Shown here: in pieces, positions 2,702-11,776 of the stretch
How the letters are laid out: each line of letters starts with the position of its first letter
How positions within the stretch are numbered: position 1 is the first letter of the stretch
Assembly (NCBI GenBank): GCA_963755915.1
Contig: CAVWLP010000002.1
Location: 1,344,001-1,408,000, forward strand
Length of the DNA: 64,000 nt
Direction: 5' to 3'
Source: an uncultured Phycisphaerales bacterium
GTDB lineage: Bacteria; Planctomycetota; Phycisphaerae; Tepidisphaerales; Tepidisphaeraceae
Translations under genes and position numbers: made by a program
The notes under the pieces: model-generated
The model's input: only the letters and a program-made list of their open reading frames with translations
Told to the model about the DNA's origin: nothing
The model's database searches: none

Positions 2702-3438
2702 TCACCACTCAAGCGTCTCCAGATGCCGCTGAATGTCCCCCGCGCTGGAAAATCGCTCCAGGATCAATGAATCCTTCCCTCCGCGGATGATCTCCTTCAC
2801 CACCTTCGGCTGCCGCGCGTACGCCGCCCGTCCCCCCACCAGCACCAGGAAAACCTCCAGCAGGTTCAGCACATCCTTCTCGATCTTCGATCGGCTCGGC
2901 TTGCCCAGGTCGAAAAAATCCAGCAGCCTCACATCGAATCCGATCCCCTGCCGGCGGATCATGATGTTGTCGTCGTGAATGTCGCCGTGATATTCCCCCC
3001 GCTCGTGGATCGGCGCGATCCCCTTCGCCAGAACGTACAAAACATGCAACGCCTCAAATGCGCTGAGGCGATGCCCGGATTGCTGGTGCAAAAATTCGCT
3101 GAGCTTTTTCCCTTCGACGAGCTCGCTGATCACCACGATCACCTTCCGCCGGTGAACATAGGCCGTTTCCTGATGGTGATATTGCAGCAGAATCGGGCAG
3201 TGCCGCAGGGCGTCGAGCTTGCGGCATAGGCGATGGCCGCCTTGCCGGTTGGATCGCGATGCGGGTAATAAAACTTAGCCGCCCGGCGGATTCCCGTGCT
3301 TCGCTCGACGATCCTGTAAACTTCGCCCTCCCAGCCACTTCCGAGCATTTCCTCGATCTGGTATTTGCCGGCGATATACCGGCCCGAGGGAAAATCGAAT
3401 CGCTTGTTTTTACGGCTCCCGCGGTACATCCCCAACAT
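2702..3438 (-). CDS. Ser/Thr protein kinase-like protein (frameshift near 3220)
   Basis: LGSGWEGEVY...AAKFY in ORF 3139-3597; YHGDIHDDNIM and LLDFFDLG in ORF 2702-3142. Confidence 0.8.
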
Positions 3439-3471
3439 GATGCGGCCTGCCAAACACCCGGTCAATCGCGC

Positions 3472-3520
3472 CTCCTCACCCCCCGCCCCCGGTACTACGG
3501 GGGAGGGCAGGGGAGGGGGT
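3472..3520. repeat. REP-like palindromic repeat
   Basis: ctcctcaccccccgcccccggtactacgggggagggcaggggagggggt, with a GTAC-centred hairpin. Confidence 0.6.
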
Positions 3521-3627
3521 TCGGCCCTCCGAGCAATCGCCTCCAACTCGTTCCGATAGCTAGGCTTATTGGAATCGCAATACTTTCTAACCCGCAATAA
3601 GCCCCCTTCGGATACTATTTAAGTGGG

Positions 3628-4017
3628 ATGGAATTCCTGAAAAGCGTTACCGGTCGAATTGTCTCCGGAATGGTCGCCCTGGCGGTCATTGCCGCCGGGA
3701 TTTCATGGTGGCAGATGGACCCCTCCACCCGCCAGATGCTCGTCACCGGCACCGGGCACATCCTGGCCTGGTTTGGGGTCGTCCTTTTCGTCCCCTGGGC
3801 CGCTTTTGCCGTCATTGGTTGGGTCGCCCGCATGGAAAGTAACCTGGCAGGGGGGTTTCTCGTCGCCTTTTTCACGCTTGCCGAAACGACCCTCCTCGCC
3901 TGGCTCTTTCAATGGCACATTGCCACCCCGACCGCCTGGACATTCCTTCTATTCGGCGGGCTGGTTTCCGGCGTATATAATCTCCTCGTCTGCGACTGGA
4001 TCGCGGAGAAAGTGTAA
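3628..4017 (+). CDS. Small integral membrane protein (about 4 TM); first gene of the putative ESCRT-III-like operon
   Basis: Four hydrophobic stretches; stop is 2 nt before the kinase start. Confidence 0.75.
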   Translation: MEFLKSVTGRIVSGMVALAVIAAGISWWQMDPSTRQMLVTGTGHILAWFGVVLFVPWAAFAVIGWVARMESNLAGGFLVAFFTLAETTLLAWLFQWHIATPTAWTFLLFGGLVSGVYNLLVCDWIAEKV

Positions 4018-4019
4018 AC

Positions 4020-5063
4020 ATGCCCCAAGCTGGCCAACGTGTCGGTGAATATGTTCTGGACGCCAGGATCGGCGGCGGGACCTTCGGCGAGGTCTGGCGC
4101 GCACGCCATCACGTCTGGACCGACCAGCTCGTCGCCATCAAAATCCCCACCGATCCCCAGTACATCCGCAACCTCAAGGGCGAAGGCGTTGCCATCCACG
4201 GCCTCGTTCACCCCAACATCGTCCGCGCCATCGGGTTCGATCCCTATGCCGAGGTCCCCTACCTCACGATGGAATATGTCCCCGGCTCCAGCCTGCGGCC
4301 ACTGATCGAAAAGAAAACCCTCACCGTCCCCCAGGTCATCTGGATCATGCGGCAAGCGCTGGCGGGCCTGAAATACGCCCACGATCACAACGTCATTCAC
4401 CGCGACATCAAGCCGGAAAATATTCTCGTTCACGAACGCGCCCTCACCGACGGTTTCGATGTCGAAGGGGTCATCAAAATTACCGACTTCGGCCTGGGCA
4501 AAGCCGCCAACAGCACGATGGGATCGATCGCCTATTCGGCATCACTGAACACGCCCGCCGCCAAAGAAATCGCCGGCACGCTCGATTACATGGCCCCCGA
4601 GCAGCGCGGCGGCGCTGACCCGCAGGCAAAATCCGATCTCTACGCCTGCGGCGTCATCCTCTACGAAATGCTCACCGGCGAACGCCCCGCCGGCACCGAT
4701 GTGCCCAGCGATCTGAATCGCTCGGTCCCGAAATATCTCGACGACGTTTTCCGCCGCAGCTACGCCCGGCTCGACAAGCGTTACGCCTCGGCGGACGAAT
4801 TTCTCGCGGCGCTGCCACCGCCGCCAACCGCCTCGCGACCGACGCCGCCGCCGCTGCCCCGCGCGGCGATTCCCCTTCCATCCGCCCGCTGCCCACAGTG
4901 CCAGAAACCGGTCGATGCCACCGACCAGTTCTGCATGTACTGCGGCGTGCAGCTTGTCGCCCAGGTTCGCCGCTGCCCCAAGTGCGGCGCCTTCCCCGAT
5001 CAATCCGACCGCTACTGCATCTTCTGCGGCGAGGCGCTTTCACCCCAGCCGATTTCCGCATAA
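4020..5063 (+). CDS. Hanks-type Ser/Thr protein kinase with Pro-rich linker and C-terminal double zinc ribbon
   Basis: IGGGTFGEVW, VAIK, HRDIKPEN, DFG, GTLDYMAPE, DLYACG; CPQC..CMYC..CPKC..CIFC. Confidence 0.95.
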   Translation: MPQAGQRVGEYVLDARIGGGTFGEVWRARHHVWTDQLVAIKIPTDPQYIRNLKGEGVAIHGLVHPNIVRAIGFDPYAEVPYLTMEYVPGSSLRPLIEKKTLTVPQVIWIMRQALAGLKYAHDHNVIHRDIKPENILVHERALTDGFDVEGVIKITDFGLGKAANSTMGSIAYSASLNTPAAKEIAGTLDYMAPEQRGGADPQAKSDLYACGVILYEMLTGERPAGTDVPSDLNRSVPKYLDDVFRRSYARLDKRYASADEFLAALPPPPTASRPTPPPLPRAAIPLPSARCPQCQKPVDATDQFCMYCGVQLVAQVRRCPKCGAFPDQSDRYCIFCGEALSPQPISA

Positions 5064-5069
5064 ACCGTC

Positions 5070-5399
5070 ATGATTCATCTGGCCGTCAACCTCTTCCTCT
5101 TCGTGGTCTTCACCTTCGTGGCGCTGGGGCTGTTTATCACGGTTGTCATCACGCGCGTCATCCAGGGAATCTTTTACGCCTTCGGGCAACTCACGCGCGT
5201 CATTGGCCTCGGTCACCGCTATCAGATGCCGCCGGTCTTCACCAGGCGTTGTAGCCGGTTCCGCTGCGGCGCGAGAAACCCGATCGAAGCCAACTACTGC
5301 CGCCGCTGCGGCTCCCCGCTGCCGCGCGCGTATGCGCGTGCCCAGGCCGATCCGTCCGCCGCCCGCAGTAAATGGGTCTCTTCATCCGTCTCCTTATGA
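5070..5399 (+). CDS. Membrane-anchored zinc-ribbon protein
   Basis: Hydrophobic N-terminus followed by CSRFRCGARNPIEANYCRRCG. Confidence 0.8.
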   Translation: MIHLAVNLFLFVVFTFVALGLFITVVITRVIQGIFYAFGQLTRVIGLGHRYQMPPVFTRRCSRFRCGARNPIEANYCRRCGSPLPRAYARAQADPSAARSKWVSSSVSL

Positions 5400-6347
5400 G
5401 CACGTTTACTCCAACCGCGCAGACGCTCCATCCGCCGGACCGGCCCGACAATCTCTCCGCCGCCGTCCTGCACAGCCTGAGCCGGCCCATCGCCGGCCAT
5501 GTTTATTCCGGCGCAATCTCCGGCTTCATCTGCGCGGCGATCACGTTCGGCCTGCTGCCGCTGATCTCCTGGCCAAAAAAATTCAGCCGATTCGTCATCG
5601 CCGAGCAGCAGCAGTTCTGGCATTTCGTGGAATGGCTGCGGATCCGCACCGGCGACGAAGACGCCGCCAGGCTCCGCGATTCCGTCCGCCAGACCGGCGC
5701 GCCGCCCACTTTGTCGATCGTCCCCATCGCCATGCTCGTCATCGTCGCCTTCGTTTTTGTCCCCTTCGTGCAGGGCGGCGGATTGGCCCACGGCCACGCC
5801 TACTGGAATCACGGCGTTTGGATTGATAATTCGTTTCGGCCCGAGTTCCTGACCATCTATTCCAACCCCCTGCTTCACGTTTACAAAATCTGGGTCATTT
5901 GCCTTTGCATCGCCTACGCTTCGCATTGGCTCCACGTCCACCAGCACCTTTCAGAAGTCAACGCGTTCCTCCGCAATCTCAACCCTATCCTCATGCGCAA
6001 AATCTCCCCCCGATGCAGGGCTATGTGCTGGGCCTGGGCCTCTCGCCGCTTTGGATGATCGCCGGTCTGATTGGCCTTGCCTGCGGCGCATGGTGGGCCA
6101 TTCCCGCCGCGCTCGCCGGCGCGGTCCATCAACGCTACTGCAAGCGCACCAGCACCCGCCTGCGCGGCGAGCTCGCCTTGCGCGCAGCACGCTCCTCCAG
6201 CGCCAGCGCCCTCCGATCAACGTCCCAACGCCCGCCGGATTCCGCGTATTCTGCATCAACGAACTGTGCGGCAAATCGCTGCCGGTCTCGGCGACTTTCT
6301 GCCCGCGATGTGGAACGCGGTTGCCAAGGACCGATGCGGTGGCGTGA
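5396..6347 (+). CDS. Multi-pass membrane protein with C-terminal zinc ribbon (frameshifts near 6000 and 6185)
   Basis: Joined from ORFs 5372-6058, 5899-6360 and 6051-6347; several TM segments; ends CINELCGKSLPVSATFCPRCG; ATGA overlap with upstream stop. Confidence 0.7.
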
Positions 6348-6356
6348 ATTCACATC

Positions 6357-6452
6357 ATGAACGTCGTTTACGCTATCATCTCGATCACCGGCTGGGCCTG
6401 GTGCATCGTCGCGATGATCTTTCTATTTCTTAAACTTCGCCGAAACGCATGA
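6357..6452 (+). CDS. 31-aa single-TM micropeptide
   Basis: MNVVYAIISITGWAWCIVAMIFLFLKLRRNA*; its stop overlaps the next start (ATGA); below the ORF-track cutoff. Confidence 0.65.
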   Translation: MNVVYAIISITGWAWCIVAMIFLFLKLRRNA

Positions 6453-7286
6453 GCGATAGCTCCGATCCAACCCGCCACCAGCAGCTCGAGGCCCAGTTCC
6501 TCGCCCACGTCCAGCGTCTGCTGGCAGATGACCGTCTCCGCCTCCCCACCGCCGCGGGACGCAAATCGGTCGTCACCCTCCAGCGCGACATCCGCTTTTC
6601 CGATCGCGGCGTCGAGCTCAAACGCCTCATGCAGCAACTCGGAAAACCCGACCGCAAGCTCGAAGCCCAGATGCCCCTCGGTAAATCGATGGACATCGGC
6701 TTATCCCGCAAAAAATTCTGGATCTTCAAATCCGGCGTCGGCCGCGTCAGAGCAATCTGCTATTCCCCCTGGCAATCGCTGATCTCCGGCCAATCGCCGC
6801 AGCCGATGTCGGCGGCCGATCTTTCGCAAACCCTCTCCTCCACGCCCCCGCCCCTGCCGGGAATCCCCGTCACGCTGGCGATCATGTCCACCTCCGGCTT
6901 CACCCCCGAAGCCCGCAAGGCCGCGTCAGAAATTAAAGACCGCACAATTATCCTGGTTTCCCCCAACGACGCCGGCGGATGGTCGATCTCCGCCAACCCC
7001 GACGCCAAAGACATCGCTCCCCTCTTCGATCCCGAACTCGACCGCGAAAAACGCGCCCGAATCCGCTCCGAAATCGACGCCAACCGGGCCTCCCTGCTTT
7101 CTTCCGGCATTGCCGCCGATAAACTGGCGGCCAAGTTGCAACTTTCGCCCCAGCTCGTCGAATCTGAGTTAAAATCGTATGCTCGGGAAAGCCCCGGCCT
7201 GTCAGGTCAAACGCCTCGACGGCCGAACGGTCTTGTTCCGTGAAGGCTCCGCGCCACTGCCGGCTGACGCCGCTGGAGGTCTCCAT
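6449..7286 (+). CDS. Protein with restriction-endonuclease-like (Mrr-type) segment and winged helix; probably read through into the downstream ESCRT-III-like domain after a frameshift near 7200
   Basis: LAIMSTSGFTPEARKAA..RTIILVS resembles the Mrr_cat C-terminal half; ADKLAAKLQLSPQLVESELKSYA plus (shifted frame) VKRLDGRTVLFR fits an HTH with a beta wing. Confidence 0.55.
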
Positions 7287-7912
7287 ATGCCGTTCATCGA
7301 CAAAATGAAAACCCTCTTCGCCCGCAAAGGGGAGGTCGAAAAGAAAATCACCTTCCTCTCCGAGCGGCGAACCGCCCTCAGTCAGCAGCTCGACCGCGGC
7401 TACGAAGACATGGGCGTCATGGAAGCCCGCGAGGCCGAGCTTCGCCAGCAGTTCAAGGACGCCACCGGCGACCTGCCCCGCCGCCGCATCACCAGCCAGC
7501 TCCTCCAGCTTCGCAAAGACATCGAGCGCCGCCAGCAATTGCTCTCCGTCCTCAACCAGCAGATCAACGTCGTCAGCACGCATCTGCACAACCTCGAGCT
7601 TCAGCGCCAGGGCCAAAGCGCCAAGCTTCCCGACAGCGAAGAAATGGCCGCCGACGCCGCAGCCGCGGAAGAAGTCCTCGCCGAGCTCCAGGCCGGCAGC
7701 GAATTGGCCGAATCCGTCGGCGCGGGCGTTCACGGCGGAATGAGCGACGAAGAGCAGGCCCTCTACGAGGAACTGATGAACGATTCCAAAACCGCCGCCC
7801 CCGCGCCCGCGACGACAGATTCGACCCCGGCCGCGAAGGCGCTCCCGCGCCGCAAGCAGTTAAACCCCCGCCCATGCCCCAGCGACAGCGCAGCGAACCC
7901 GAGGCCGGCTGA
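7287..7912 (+). CDS. ESCRT-III/Snf7-like coiled-coil protein 1 (frameshift near 7835 in the Pro/Ala tail)
   Basis: Amphipathic MPFIDKMKTLFARK start, long heptad hairpin, acidic helix MSDEEQALYEEL; SD GGAGGT at 7275-7280. Confidence 0.6.
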
Positions 7913-7917
7913 TAATT

Positions 7918-8529
7918 ATGGCACTCATCGACAAAATCTTCGGCCACAAGAAAACCCTCAGCGAGCTCAATCGCCAGGAGCTCCGCAAGGAGGAAATCCT
8001 TCTGACCAAGCAGCGCGACCGCCTCTTCAAGCGCATCGAGCAGATCAGCACCAACAAGCAGAAAATCTTCCAGCAGGGCGCCACCCAGAAATCCCCCGAG
8101 CTGCGAAAATCCCTCGCCCAGCAGTTCGAGATGGAAACGCAGGAGCAGCTCATGGCCGCCCGCGAGCTGACCCTCCGCAGCAAGGAGCTGATGACGGTCA
8201 GCCGCCTGCGCATGGTCAAGGAAAACACCGAGCGCGGCAAAGGCGCCGGCCGATTGAATCTCACCGACAAAGACGTCGCCAAGATCACCCAGTGGATCGA
8301 AGACGATGCCGTCTCCCAGGACGTCTATCGCGACCGTCTCGACAGCTTATTGGAACTCGGCAACCAGTCTGATAAAGACGCCCTCGAATCCGCCGGCCTC
8401 ACCAGCGCCGGCCAGGAACTGATGAACATCTGGAACGACATGGACCGCGGCGCGGTGAAGCCGGAGCAGGCTTTCGACGCCGCCGACAAGGCCGTGCGGA
8501 AACACAACGCTCCCGACAAGGAAATGTGA
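7918..8529 (+). CDS. ESCRT-III/Snf7-like coiled-coil protein 2
   Basis: MALIDKIFGHKK start, basic coiled-coil N-half, acidic C-half, 203 aa. Confidence 0.6.
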   Translation: MALIDKIFGHKKTLSELNRQELRKEEILLTKQRDRLFKRIEQISTNKQKIFQQGATQKSPELRKSLAQQFEMETQEQLMAARELTLRSKELMTVSRLRMVKENTERGKGAGRLNLTDKDVAKITQWIEDDAVSQDVYRDRLDSLLELGNQSDKDALESAGLTSAGQELMNIWNDMDRGAVKPEQAFDAADKAVRKHNAPDKEM

Positions 8530-8663: not shown

Positions 8664-9275
8664 ATGGGCCTGTTTAAATCCAAAGACGAACGCCGCATCG
8701 AACGCGAAATGAAAATCCGCTCCGGAATGCGCTCCATCGAACGCTCCATCCGTCAGCAGGAAAAATTCGCAGAAGACTTCATCAAAAACGCCCAGCACGC
8801 CAGGCGCATCGGCGACAACGGCCAATACCTCTTCATCCGCAGCGCCCTGAAAAAAACCGCCGCGGTGAAGAAAATGCTCGAGCGGCAATTGCTTTCGATC
8901 AAAAACGCCATGCTCATCCAGCAGCAGGCCCGCTCCAGCCAGCAGTTTGCAGAATCAATGTCCCTCATGGCCCGCGAGATCGGCCAGGTCTTCGGCGAGC
9001 TCGACCTCACCAAAACCCAGGCCGACTGGGAAAAAGCCGTCACCCAGGCCGGCAGCATCGAGGAGCGCATGGACGTCTTCCTCGATTCCATGGAGCAATC
9101 CGCCGGCACCGCCGCCTCCCCCACCAGCTCCCGCGAAGACCTTGTCACCGATGAAGAAATCGACCGCATGATCGACGCGGACGTCCTCGCCTCCGAAAAA
9201 ACCGAGCTGGGAAAACTCGACGAACTGGAATCAGAGATCGCCAAGGAATTGGGGACGAACAAGCAGAAGGATTGA
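8664..9275 (+). CDS. ESCRT-III-like protein 3 (Vps2/Vps24/Did2-class pattern)
   Basis: MGLFKSK..IRSGMRSIERSIRQQEK..ARRIGD..SQQFAESMSLMAREIGQV..LDLTK..VTDEEIDRMID..LDELESEIAKELG; 203 aa. Confidence 0.7.
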   Translation: MGLFKSKDERRIEREMKIRSGMRSIERSIRQQEKFAEDFIKNAQHARRIGDNGQYLFIRSALKKTAAVKKMLERQLLSIKNAMLIQQQARSSQQFAESMSLMAREIGQVFGELDLTKTQADWEKAVTQAGSIEERMDVFLDSMEQSAGTAASPTSSREDLVTDEEIDRMIDADVLASEKTELGKLDELESEIAKELGTNKQKD

Positions 9276-9347: not shown

Positions 9348-9572
9348 ATGCGGCAAGTCGAATCAGTTATTAAAGTCGATCCCGAAATTCAGGGCGGAAC
9401 CCCCTGTTTCTCGGGCACGCGCGTGCCCATCAAGTCATTGTTCGACTACCTCGCCCGAAGCCGGTCCTTGGACTATTTCCTCGAGCAGTTCCCTTCAGTC
9501 AAACGCTCCCAGGCAGTCCGGCTCCTCGAAAAGGCGGGCAAAATGGTCGCTCGCGCTCCGCGAGCAGCATGA
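9348..9572 (+). CDS. DUF433 putative antitoxin
   Basis: IKVDPEIQGGTPCFSGTRVPI motif. Confidence 0.9.
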   Translation: MRQVESVIKVDPEIQGGTPCFSGTRVPIKSLFDYLARSRSLDYFLEQFPSVKRSQAVRLLEKAGKMVARAPRAA

Positions 9573-9889
9573 AAGTGCTTCTGGACGAAAACCTTCCTCA
9601 CGCTTTGCGGCATGAGCTTTTCGATCACCAGGTTTTCACCGTTCAATTCTTAAAATGGACGGGCACTAAAAATGGCGCCCTTCTGGCCAAGGCGGCAAGG
9701 GCAGGCTTTCATGTCATGGTCACAATGGATGACGGCGTCGAATATCAACAGAATCTCAAAGGACTCTCCATCGGAATAGTCATCCTCATGGCCGCTTCCA
9801 ATGATATGGATGATTTGTTGCCCTTGCTTCCAAAATTGCGCCGTGCCTTGAAGCAGCCGAAGCCCGGCGCGGTTATCCGAATCCGCTAA
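9569..9889 (+). CDS. PIN-like (DUF5615) putative toxin
   Basis: MKVLLDENLP..WTGTKNGALL..VTMD..YQQNL; ATGA overlap with the DUF433 gene. Confidence 0.85.
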   Translation: MKVLLDENLPHALRHELFDHQVFTVQFLKWTGTKNGALLAKAARAGFHVMVTMDDGVEYQQNLKGLSIGIVILMAASNDMDDLLPLLPKLRRALKQPKPGAVIRIR

Positions 9890-9922: not shown

Positions 9923-11776
9923 TCAAAAGTCCTCCCTCCCCACCACATCCAAATGCTGATCCGGAATATCCGCGACGTGAACCGTAGTAATATTCTTCAC
10001 ATCATAAAGATTCATCATCGCCGCCGGCGGCCAATACGGCGCCATCACGTGCTCGAAATAAACATTCTGCACATCGCGCAGCCAAAACGGCGCCCGCACG
10101 TCTTTCGTCAGGCACCCGATGTCGACATTCGTCATCTCCAGCCCATTCACATGCCGCACGTAAAACGCATACGCCGGCTCCCCCCAAACCGCCCCGGATC
10201 CGGATACCCCTTCACCTGCTCCCAAGGCTCCTTCCGCGTCCACGATCCCTTCCCGCCCCCCGGGAAAATCATCCGGATATCGTGCAGATGCAAATCCTCC
10301 ACCTCATGCCCCGGAATCCCGCTGATGATGCACGCAAATCTGACGGATTTACATTGCGCCACCACATTGCTGATATTCACATGCCTGATCGCCCCCACCG
10401 GCGTCCCCTTCGGCCCGCGCATGCCGCCCCCAGCCGAATATAAATCGGCGAACTCACAATATCGCGCATCGCCAGGTTGGTAACGGTCACGTTATCGATC
10501 ACTCCTCCATCCACGCTTTCGATCGCCAGCCCCTGGCAATCGTCGAACAGACAATTCGTGATCGCGATATTCTTGAATCCCCCGTTCGATTCCGTCCCCA
10601 TCTTGATCCGCCCCGTGCGCGAGGTATGGCGCGGATGTCCATGCTCATCCGGGTTATAGTTCCCGGAGATTTTCTGGAACGTCCCATCCAGCAGCGTCCC
10701 TTCCCTGTATCCGCCGCTCACCATGCAACTATCGATCGTCACGTTCTCCGTATCGCGCACATACCCCAGCCCATAGGAGCTCTTCAGCACGATGGCATCA
10801 TCGTTCGGCGAATTCACCGCGCAATTCGAAACCCGCACGTTCCGGCAGCAGTCGATATCCATCCCATCCCGATTCGTATCGATCTTCACGTTATCGATTG
10901 TCAGCCCATCCACCGCCGTCGCCAGGATTCCGAAGTGCCCTCCCTCATAAATCGAAAAATCGCGCAGGATGCACCCGCGCACGTTCTTCAACGAAATCGC
11001 CTTGTTCCCAATCCCCGCCGCCAGCTCCTCCTTCGGATCGGGATATTCCGGCTTCGTCGCCGGCTTGGTCGTCGGATCCGACGGCTGCGTCGCCACATAC
11101 ATCGCCGTGTAATCCTGCGAGTTCATGTCCGCGGGAATCCGATTCAGCGCCCACCGCCACGGCCGCGTCGAAGCCCCCGACTCATCCACCGGCCCCACCC
11201 GGACATCCGTCCTCCCCATCTGCACCTCCCAAGGCTCCTGCGTATCCGCCGACGGCTGCGTCGTATCCTGCCACGGCTCCGTCGTCGGCCACGTTGTCGG
11301 CTTTTTATTATCCGGCTTCGGCGACCCCCGATTCAGCGCATCCTTCCCGTCAATCATCCCCGGCCCCAATATCGCCACGTTCTGAATATTCTCCCCCCAG
11401 ATCAAGCTGTTATGCCAATGCGTATGCCCGAAATCCTGAAACTGATCCTTGAACGGCCACGCCTCCGGCGGATCGTATTCCCCTTTATAAATCGTTCCCG
11501 CCGCCCGAATCGTCGCCCCTTCATCCAGATAGATCGCCACATTGCTCTTCAGATGAATCGAATAGCAAAGATAAGTCCCCGCCGCAAAATGCACCGTCCC
11601 CCCGCCCGCCTTGTTGGCAGCCGATATCGCATCATTCACCGCCGGCGTATCCAGGTGCAACCCATCCCCCCGCGCCCAAAATTGCGAACCTCAAACACCC
11701 CATTTGCTGCCTGACATCCGCCGAGCATCCCGAATATCAGCAGCAGGCCAATCCGAACAATTTTGATGTGATTCAT
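9923..11776 (-). CDS. Glycoside hydrolase family 28 (polygalacturonase/rhamnogalacturonase-like); frameshifts near 11670, 10420 and 10200
   Basis: DTPAVNDAI..GGGTVHFAAGTYL, NRDGMDID, DDAIVLKS, GRIKMGTESNGGF; N-terminal signal MNHIKIVRIGLLLIFGMLGGC. Confidence 0.85.

Follow-up and report, generated by a model that had tools for sequence, protein, structure and literature searches.

The stretch of DNA analysed here (the window, 64,000 nucleotides) spans positions 1,344,001 to 1,408,000 of contig CAVWLP010000002.1 (C2 in our numbering), which belongs to an uncultured Phycisphaerales bacterium of the family Tepidisphaeraceae. The genome (G000; GenBank assembly GCA_963755915.1) consists of 3 contigs and 6.6 Mb, with a marker completeness of 81% and a contamination of 8%. 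The window holds a gene cluster on its forward strand, in which genes for a Ser/Thr protein kinase and for hydrophobic proteins are followed by a gene that we call the fusion gene and by two further genes, E3b and E3c (Table 1). The fusion gene encodes an unannotated, family-wide protein of three modules, namely a predicted restriction-endonuclease-like N-terminal domain (N-domain), one predicted winged helix, and a C-terminal domain (C-domain) with the predicted helix pattern of ESCRT-III proteins. It also has a probable second product, which would start inside the reading frame.

Table 1. Features of the gene cluster, with positions in the window and supporting observations
Feature	Position	Strand	Observations
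Small hydrophobic protein, 129 amino acids, head of the cluster; membrane location read from sequence	3628..4017	+	Upstream of the kinase in 11/24 loci other than that of the window (L001), several of them cut short upstream
Ser/Thr protein kinase with C-terminal double zinc ribbon	4020..5063	+	Pkinase (E 2e-43), DZR; 66/71 loci
Variable part of the cluster: two genes (5070..5399 and 5372..6347) whose hydrophobic products, presumed membrane proteins, carry zinc ribbons	5070..6347	+	Zn_Ribbon_1
Fusion gene, about 487 codons: N-domain, winged helix, linker, ESCRT-III-like C-domain	6449..7912	+	Single open reading frame of relatives; contigs of public runs; read-through
N-domain (residues 1-195), alpha/beta, predicted restriction-endonuclease-like fold; conserved motifs STSGF, GGW, LFDPE	6449..7033	+	
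Predicted winged helix (residues 198-264); false frameshift just before its wing	7040..7241	+	
Extra base, creating the false stop 7241-7243	7201..7201	+	Absent from G001 and from contigs of runs X1, X2, X3, X5
Shine-Dalgarno-like GGAGGT inside the reading frame, in the disordered linker	7275..7280	+	
In-frame start codon within the gene, at residue 280 of the long form; a short product of about 207 amino acids is proposed to begin here	7287..7289	+	
ESCRT-III-like C-domain: short N-terminal helix, hairpin of 42 + 46 residues, two further helices, disordered tail ending EPE(A/P)G	7287..7912	+	
Missing base; frame 0 thereby reaches 8372 instead of the stop 7910-7912	7840..7841	+	G001, X1, X5
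E3b, second ESCRT-III-like gene, 203 amino acids, paralogue of the C-domain	7918..8529	+	Adjoins the fusion gene in 69/71 loci
E3c, third ESCRT-III-like gene, 203 amino acids; alone among the three in having a sequence link to Snf7/CHMP	8664..9275	+	CHMP3 profile match; 63/71 loci

The fusion gene and its two frame breaks

As assembled, the gene is not continuous. Frame 2 of the window is open from the ATG at 6449 to a stop at 7241-7243 (264 amino acids), and from about 7202 frame 0 continues through the strand-turn-strand wing of the winged helix and a short linker to the Met codon at 7287. Frame 0 runs past 7912 to 8372, and the stop at 7910-7912 lies in frame 2, so that a second frame change is needed near 7840. 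The window was aligned at the DNA level with its closest relative, G001 (3127 aligned bases, 91.9% identity). Compared with G001, the window carries an additional base at 7201 and lacks one at 7840, and two further bases are missing at 5996 and 6184 from the upstream gene at 5372-6347, whose product carries its zinc ribbon at the C terminus and is encoded in one frame in G001. Four frame-breaking indels therefore lie within about 2.6 kb. Logan contigs of four public soil or peat runs (X1, X2, and X3 from one study, X5 from another) were also aligned to 6449-7912. Base 7201 was missing from the contigs of all four covering runs (95-99% likeness), with contig depths without the base versus in total of 4.3/4.3, 3.31/3.31, 2.47/2.47, and 7/7. 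The contigs of X2 and X3 do not cover the second site, and both runs that cover it carried an inserted base, a C behind 7841 in X1 and a T behind 7840 in X5. This run evidence consists of contigs rather than reads, its depth is low (2.5-7), and X1 (67% of words) possibly stems from the same sample as the window. When base 7201 was dropped and an N was placed after 7840, one frame of 487 amino acids with a single terminal stop was obtained, 96.5% identical to the 485-amino-acid protein of G001.

Relatives carry the gene in one piece. With the 264-amino-acid fragment as query, a match was found in 27 of 41 genomes (G000 included), and in 23 of the 24 other genomes of the same family. Among short-read assemblies from the same genus, it lay inside one open frame of 523-565 amino acids, and relatives generally encode one open reading frame of 470-560 amino acids. 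The gene also lies in pieces in G006 and G007, two other few-contig, low-completeness assemblies. Because relatives have one open reading frame, the covering contigs correct both indels, and the read-through yields 487 amino acids, 6449-7912 is a single intact gene, and both frame breaks are errors of an indel-rich assembly. The window as assembled does carry the stop at 7241-7243, as a pseudogene, a recently split gene, or a site of programmed frameshifting in the strain would; nevertheless, a genuine frameshift is extremely improbable, given that base 7201 is lacking from every covering contig of four runs, that a compensating-frame error follows after 640 nt and the upstream gene contains two further errors, as fits an indel-rich assembly, and that 7195-7205 offers no slippery context. 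A programmed frameshift and a pseudogene were ruled out by the run contigs and the relatives. The frameshift is thus ordinary, an assembly artefact, but the underlying gene is not. Other apparent frameshifts or split genes in this assembly, with its frequent single-base indels, deserve distrust.

The original prediction had proposed that removal of one base near 7202 would restore the frame into the internal Met, and had singled out 7195-7210 for inspection. G001 encodes exactly the predicted peptide, and the extra base falls within that interval. Its single fused gene at 6449-7912 is likewise borne out, although the one-base repair is insufficient and the second error, at 7840, had been overlooked. 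G001 has a single-base frameshift of its own in the E3b gene (about 3289 of locus L002) and, between the upstream gene and the fusion gene (786-1399 of L002), a 614-bp insertion containing a small open reading frame and a long, G+C-rich inverted repeat.

The internal Shine-Dalgarno sequence and start codon

A GGAGGT at 7275-7280, 6 nt before the ATG at 7287, had been noted in the original prediction, and it is present in the sequence. Given that its frequency in a single genome is no more than chance, it is its conservation across genomes that makes the internal Shine-Dalgarno (SD) sequence meaningful. The internal Met was invariant in 42/42 aligned sequences. Codon choice ahead of it was examined in 20 family genes, which left out the window (L001), L011 (frameshifted there), and the distant L023-L025. 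Of the two Gly codons preceding the Met, one was GGA in 18/18 genes and the other GGT in 15/19 (GGA in 3, GGC in 1), while Gly codons overall in the same 20 genes were 57% GGC, 19% GGG, 14% GGA, and 10% GGT, and GGC led in 11 of 12 other conserved Gly columns. In other families the linker has other residues (QED, EED, ARS), but GGAGGA or AAGGAG is retained in the DNA.

Two sets of loci were then compared. The first contained 23 loci (L002-L010 and L012-L025). The wider set contained 71 loci from named Phycisphaerae metagenome-assembled genome (MAG) records, obtained with the short-type relative P0138 as query; 70 of these were analysed, L101 being omitted because its match is cut by a contig end. 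A GGAG or GAGG core was found at -17 to -5 of the internal start in 22/23 and 66/70 loci, respectively (88/93 together), compared with 7.2% and 12.0% at all other codon positions of the same open reading frames and 6.1% and 7.6% at other in-frame ATG or GTG codons. The offset of GGAG is fixed as well, beginning at -12 in 17/23 and at -13 in 61/70 loci. At codon -5, 13 different residues are encoded, but G is the third base in 63/70 loci, versus 41.8% G at third positions overall, and codon -4 is GAG in 62/70. The internal start codon is ATG in 87 and GTG in 6 of the 93 loci; the six GTG loci (L054, L082, L085, L092, L094, and L102) keep the SD core, and their GTG is read as Val in the long form. 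What is conserved is a start codon rather than a methionine. Furthermore, stand-alone homologues of about 190-230 amino acids start exactly at the position of the internal Met.

Several observations weigh against a functional internal start. Within the window, the pattern GGAGG-N4-9-ATG occurs 18 times versus 16.2 expected, i.e., at chance frequency; the other genes of the cluster have no clear SD sequence; and of the public runs that match the stretch, 0 are on record as RNA. In addition, the loci are kin, so that the counts are not independent and overstate the support. Nevertheless, protein identity between the two locus sets is 31-37%, and this low identity, together with the variety of residues, makes inheritance alone an unlikely cause of the SD conservation. 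A working internal ribosome-binding site is thus the simplest and a probable reading, and a short isoform is likely made besides the long form. With regard to the long and short isoforms suggested earlier, the nucleotide-level conservation of the SD sequence and start codon strongly suggests them.

Domains, neighbours, and probable kinship with ESCRT-III

Searched with the G001 protein, 8000 scored candidates contained 655 relatives at an expectation value (E) of at most 0.001. The best 120 of these 655 were 364-530 amino acids long and had no precomputed Pfam domain, and the named relatives among the matches listed were "hypothetical" proteins (with a few stray automatic names) from Tepidisphaeraceae MAGs. 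Pfam, NCBIfam, and PADLOC searches with the pieces and the whole protein returned coiled-coil noise only. A 42-sequence alignment was collinear end to end, and AlphaFold modelling of the G001 orthologue on this alignment gave a mean predicted local distance difference test (pLDDT) score of 78 and a predicted template modelling (pTM) score of 0.53. The model consists of an alpha/beta domain at residues 1-195 (pLDDT about 90), the winged helix at 198-264, a disordered linker at 268-279, and then helices and a disordered tail. The product of about 487 amino acids is thereby predicted to combine a restriction-endonuclease-like domain, one winged helix, and a C-domain with the ESCRT-III helix pattern.

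Folded alone, the N-domain reached a pLDDT of 92 and a pTM of 0.88. Its fold matches included AspBHI, Can2, FokI, BspD6I, NucS, LlaBIII, HamA, Avs4, and Cap4, intermixed with RPB5, central domains of acetyl-CoA carboxylase, and Rossmann-like dehydrogenases; nuclease folds made up about 18 of the best 50 rows. The best matches were Mrr-type or type IV restriction endonucleases (MspJI, AspBHI, LlaBIII, AF1548), with which the N-domain shares a strand-turn motif, here STSGF, that leads into a helix and then a hydrophobic strand. Foldseek searches of the Protein Data Bank (PDB) with the whole model and the N-domain found nothing at E of at most 0.001, and no Pfam Mrr_cat or related model matched the 264-amino-acid piece (E up to 0.1) or the whole protein (E up to 1). 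No catalytic D...(D/E)xK is conserved among the invariant or nearly invariant columns of 42 and 45 sequences. The strands at 80-105 hold no acidic-x-Lys, the strand reading VGR.R, and Asp 82 is lost in distant families; this structure-based mapping of catalytic residues was made by eye, without superposition. The N-domain is predicted to be a restriction-endonuclease-like domain that has lost its catalytic residues. The likeness of the STSGFTPEA segment to Mrr-type folds, claimed in the original prediction, agrees with the recurring nuclease-fold matches and the strand-turn motif, whereas an active nuclease does not agree with the lack of a conserved D...(D/E)xK.

The winged helix foreseen from the sequence is recovered by structure prediction at residues 198-264, as a single domain of three helices followed by a beta-hairpin wing. 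Its best fold matches were GntR, ScpB, and Zalpha; the ESCRT-II chain 3cuq_B reached a Foldseek E of 0.30 only and ranked below GntR and ScpB.

In the G001 model the C-domain comprises helices at 281-291, 296-337, 341-386, 396-423, and 433-445, with a core pLDDT of 75-85, and this predicted arrangement, a short N-terminal helix ahead of a long hairpin and two later helices, is the ESCRT-III core pattern. The disordered, variable tail ends in a conserved C-terminal motif, R.EPE(A/P)G (about 7890-7909), which reads P.AE in distant families and is present in stand-alone homologues too; it resembles a docking peptide for a partner. When the C-domain family was compared with the E3b family by hhalign on deeper alignments, the probability was 92.4% with an E of 5.2e-7 over 146 collinear columns; a shallower E3b alignment gave 77.8%, and the first, shallow comparison was weak. 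The comparison of E3b with E3c gave an E of 0.0046 over 111 collinear columns, a weak match at low probability. Searched against 177,635 PDB sequences, the E3c profile matched only CHMP3 chains (E 0.0023 with 10 sequences, 0.0078 with 30 sequences), and the match was collinear, from E3c 13-151 to CHMP3 14-155. The Pfam Snf7 model scored 14.5-18.7 bits on E3c, below its cut-off of 27.3. Among the matches listed by a homologue search with E3c, all were close relatives, without Pfam marks. In the ESM Atlas, the best named lead for the C-domain was a Lentisphaerota cluster with Snf7 on 16% of its members (score 0.89), which we treat as a lead only.

The order kinase, fusion gene, E3b, and E3c recurs in three families. 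In L074 the E3c homologue (3300-4697) lies in a 466-amino-acid frame, twice the usual length, by fusion or a lost stop. The G000 genome, which is 81% complete by markers, contained no match to Vps4_C (the control was positive in 2 archaea) and none to PspA_IM30 or FtsZ_C (controls as expected). Directly after the cluster, at 9348-9889, lies an overlapping pair of DUF433 (E 2.5e-14) and DUF5615/PIN-like (E 4e-5) genes, which looks toxin-antitoxin-type and stands outside the conserved cluster; a beta-helix or glycosyl hydrolase 28-like protein on the minus strand at 10377-11660 is unrelated to the cluster.

A C-domain profile was scanned against 251 Phycisphaerae genomes, the sampled ones among them being required to be at least 90% complete, and matched 78 of them (G000 included). 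By family, it was present in 37/40 genomes of f1, 10/10 of f4, 1/1 of f9, 17/17 of f108, 11/11 of f110, and 1/1 of f112, and it was not found by the same scan in f2 (0/38), f3 (0/12), f5 (0/29), f7 (0/12), f12 (0/13), f13 (0/23), and ten smaller families. In six Phycisphaerae families the cluster is nearly universal, and the search of the other families yielded none. Most genomes had one match, and 74 of the 82 matches listed lay in open frames of 451-738 amino acids, i.e., were fused, the other 8 being fragments or second matches. In the wider locus set, at least 200 in-frame codons lay upstream in 68/70 loci; the exceptions were L073, which lies at the edge of a contig, and L093, where there are 44 codons. 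As to whether homologs are fused or split, they are fused in these 68 loci as well as in the family loci, and a recent gene fusion, which had been considered, does not fit a fusion common to six families of the class.

Among 301 sampled Planctomycetota, the C-domain profile matched 9 (G000 included). In other Planctomycetota lineages the homologue stands alone or is adjacent or fused to an unrelated protein of about 900-975 amino acids; it lies right behind this protein in L027 and L028 and is fused to it in a 1186-amino-acid frame in L029. The large partners of stand-alone homologues in these lineages had no Pfam match. One or two E3b-like genes follow the C-domain homologue in L028, L029, and L031, the loci checked. 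The large protein provides the same ESCRT-III-like pair with a second head, independent of the first. Because other lineages keep the pair without the nuclease-like and winged-helix head, the pair of C-domain-type and E3b-type genes is the old core, to which that head was added once, early in part of the class.

Taken together, membership of the C-domain in the ESCRT-III superfamily is likely but not proven, because the link runs via E3b paralogy and the borderline match of E3c to CHMP3. A good deal counts against it. Pfam and PDB profile searches with the C-domain gave no direct significant match to Snf7, PspA, or a solved ESCRT-III structure, and hidden Markov model profiles of the C-domain (A2, A6) and of E3b (A3, A8) found no ESCRT-III among PDB sequences, one CHMP4B fragment at E 5.5 being discounted. 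A sub-threshold Snf7 match (E 0.0045) occurred in 1 of 33 C-domain relatives, and sub-threshold Snf7 matches like that of E3c were also present in 9 of 14 control genomes. Among the 304 relatives that an exhaustive library search retrieved with the C-domain profile, none formed a bridge outside the family, and the hhalign comparison of the C-domain with E3c was non-significant. In fold searches BAR domains and designed helical bundles scored equal to or above ESCRT-III, and SMC coiled coils scored like it. The C-domain and its neighbours could accordingly be generic coiled-coil or helical-hairpin proteins unrelated to ESCRT-III, in a locus that, having a nuclease-like head, a winged helix, and a kinase, could act on DNA, in chromosome organisation or defence, instead of on membranes; a weak match to LmuB (E 0.0033) and the matching of the kinase to kinase models of defence sets, by generic kinase similarity, would also suit this. 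We nevertheless hold such an origin to be unlikely, because the E3c profile finds only CHMP3, collinearly over about 140 residues, the lengths and order of the C-domain helices fit ESCRT-III, and three tandem paralogue-like genes resemble ESCRT-III sets, whereas the family-wide, mostly single-copy, syntenic distribution is unlike that of mobile defence islands and the catalytic nuclease residues are not conserved.

A different doubt concerns the second product. The fused gene may be real while its internal SD sequence and ATG do not work as a start; they could be left over from the fusion, or make ribosomes pause between domains as an SD-like site, and only the long protein would be made. Stand-alone C-domain relatives start at the same Met, so a fusion would leave such a site, and the motif is at chance frequency within the window. 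However, a relic should decay, yet the core is kept at a fixed offset in nearly all loci, despite the low identity between the sets, the many residues at codon -5, and the use of both ATG and GTG. Rare Gly codons are used there, and a pause site needs no start codon. An idle site is still less probable than an origin of the C-domain outside ESCRT-III, and we retain a long and a short form as the preferred reading.

Proposed mode of action and comparison with known systems

On balance we favour, with reasonable though not high confidence, an account in which a single gene of three modules gives two products of an ESCRT-III-like polymer with an adaptor head. The conservation of the internal start suggests that the gene would yield a long form and a short form, the latter being the ESCRT-III-like domain alone with a free N-terminal helix; N-terminal motifs of ESCRT-III proteins bind lipid (PMC7619361, in the part available). 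As the gene context and the behaviour of ESCRT-III families suggest, the short form may co-assemble with E3b and E3c into a membrane-bound polymer, which the long form would enter via its C-domain. The nuclease-like and winged-helix head would then bind DNA, a partner protein, or a landmark and so serve as adaptor or nucleator, and the co-conserved Ser/Thr kinase might regulate assembly. Since no Vps4 was found, disassembly would have to proceed by another route.

It is tempting to extend this to cell division, given that Phycisphaerae divide by binary fission without FtsZ (PMC6952346, in the part available). The cluster could be a bacterial, Vps4-less counterpart of the archaeal Cdv/ESCRT machinery for membrane scission in those Phycisphaerae lineages that have it, in which the head ties the polymer to the nucleoid or a landmark, as CdvA does for CdvB, and the short isoform serves as the bulk subunit, so that translation sets the ratio of nucleator to subunit. 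This extension is improbable, more so than either of the alternatives weighed above: no member was found in other Phycisphaerae families that are FtsZ-less (0/38, 0/29, 0/23, and others), and 292 of the 301 sampled Planctomycetota had no match. A role in division is thus possible but unsupported.

PspA/Vipp1 and scattered Snf7-like genes are described as making up essentially all of the bacterial ESCRT-III superfamily, and bacteria are said to lack ESCRT-I/II-type adaptors (PMC11188069, in its accessible part). If the present account is true, a bacterial locus with three ESCRT-III-like genes, one of them joined to a winged-helix adaptor head and with a Ser/Thr kinase nearby, would extend the archaeal-type layout to bacteria, in a host group whose FtsZ-free division is unexplained. 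The internal start, if true, would be a clean natural case of one gene encoding a polymer subunit and its adaptor-bearing variant. Tests could be made in cultured relatives, namely Tepidisphaeraceae isolates and Phycisphaera. In the literature on ESCRT-III, Snf7, and PspA in Planctomycetota and bacteria, a scope outside which lay most subscription journals and the supplements of PMC11237479 and PMC11188069, no description of the locus was found.

Overall, one fused gene, its winged helix, and, as a suggestion, its isoforms remain of the earlier interpretation, and a recent fusion, an active nuclease, and kinship with CHMP7 or ESCRT-II do not. CHMP7 is a eukaryotic fusion of an ESCRT-II-like part with tandem winged helices to Snf7. 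The fusion protein resembles it in module order, with the winged-helix part N-terminal to the ESCRT-III-type part, and a nucleator role would be an analogy. It differs in having one generic winged helix, nearest to GntR, ScpB, and Zalpha, rather than two in tandem, an additional nuclease-like domain, and no sequence match, so that the likeness is architectural only and convergent at most.

CdvB of Thermoproteota likewise holds an ESCRT-III-type domain and a winged helix in one protein, and archaeal ESCRT loci likewise gather several ESCRT-III paralogues. The winged helix of CdvB is C-terminal, whereas that of the fusion protein is N-terminal to the ESCRT-III-like part. In the accessible part of PMC11188069, the CdvB domain is called a "wH extension", archaeal ESCRT loci often have a winged-helix protein just upstream of ESCRT-III and contain Ser/Thr kinases and zinc-ribbon proteins, one archaeal winged-helix protein has an inactivated Cas2-like nuclease head, and homologues of many ESCRT components are stated to exist in archaea "but not in bacteria". 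The present locus differs in its bacterial host, in that no Vps4 was found, in its head, which is PD-(D/E)XK-like rather than Cas2-like, and in showing no significant sequence similarity to the archaeal proteins.

With PspA/Vipp1 (IM30) and the bacterial Snf7 homologues, as far as the consulted sources describe them, the fusion protein has in common its bacterial origin, a hairpin of the ESCRT-III type, and paralogues arranged in tandem, in operons that also encode accessory proteins. Unlike PspA/Vipp1, neither it nor its genome gave a PspA_IM30 match, and the partners here are a kinase, zinc ribbons, and a nuclease-like and winged-helix head. Its hairpin helices of 42 and 46 residues are presumably nearer to Snf7/CHMP size than to that of PspA/Vipp1. 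Sporadic bacterial Snf7 homologues include an RND fusion in Actinobacteria and PspA-Snf7 neighbourhoods in Deltaproteobacteria and Bacteroidetes, and no architecture like that of the fusion protein appears among the bacterial Snf7 and PspA types in the consulted part of the survey that describes them (PMC11237479).

Finally, the gene can be set beside bacterial dual-isoform genes. ClpB, IF2, and CheA are encoded by such genes, each with an in-frame internal start. In-frame internal starts yielding two isoforms have been mapped genome-wide in bacteria (10.1101/520783 and PMC11005335, in the parts available). Like these genes, the fusion gene has an in-frame SD sequence and start codon inside its reading frame at a domain boundary, which would give a full-length and an N-terminally truncated product. 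It differs in that its case is drawn from conservation alone, and in that its short product would be the ancestral stand-alone protein.

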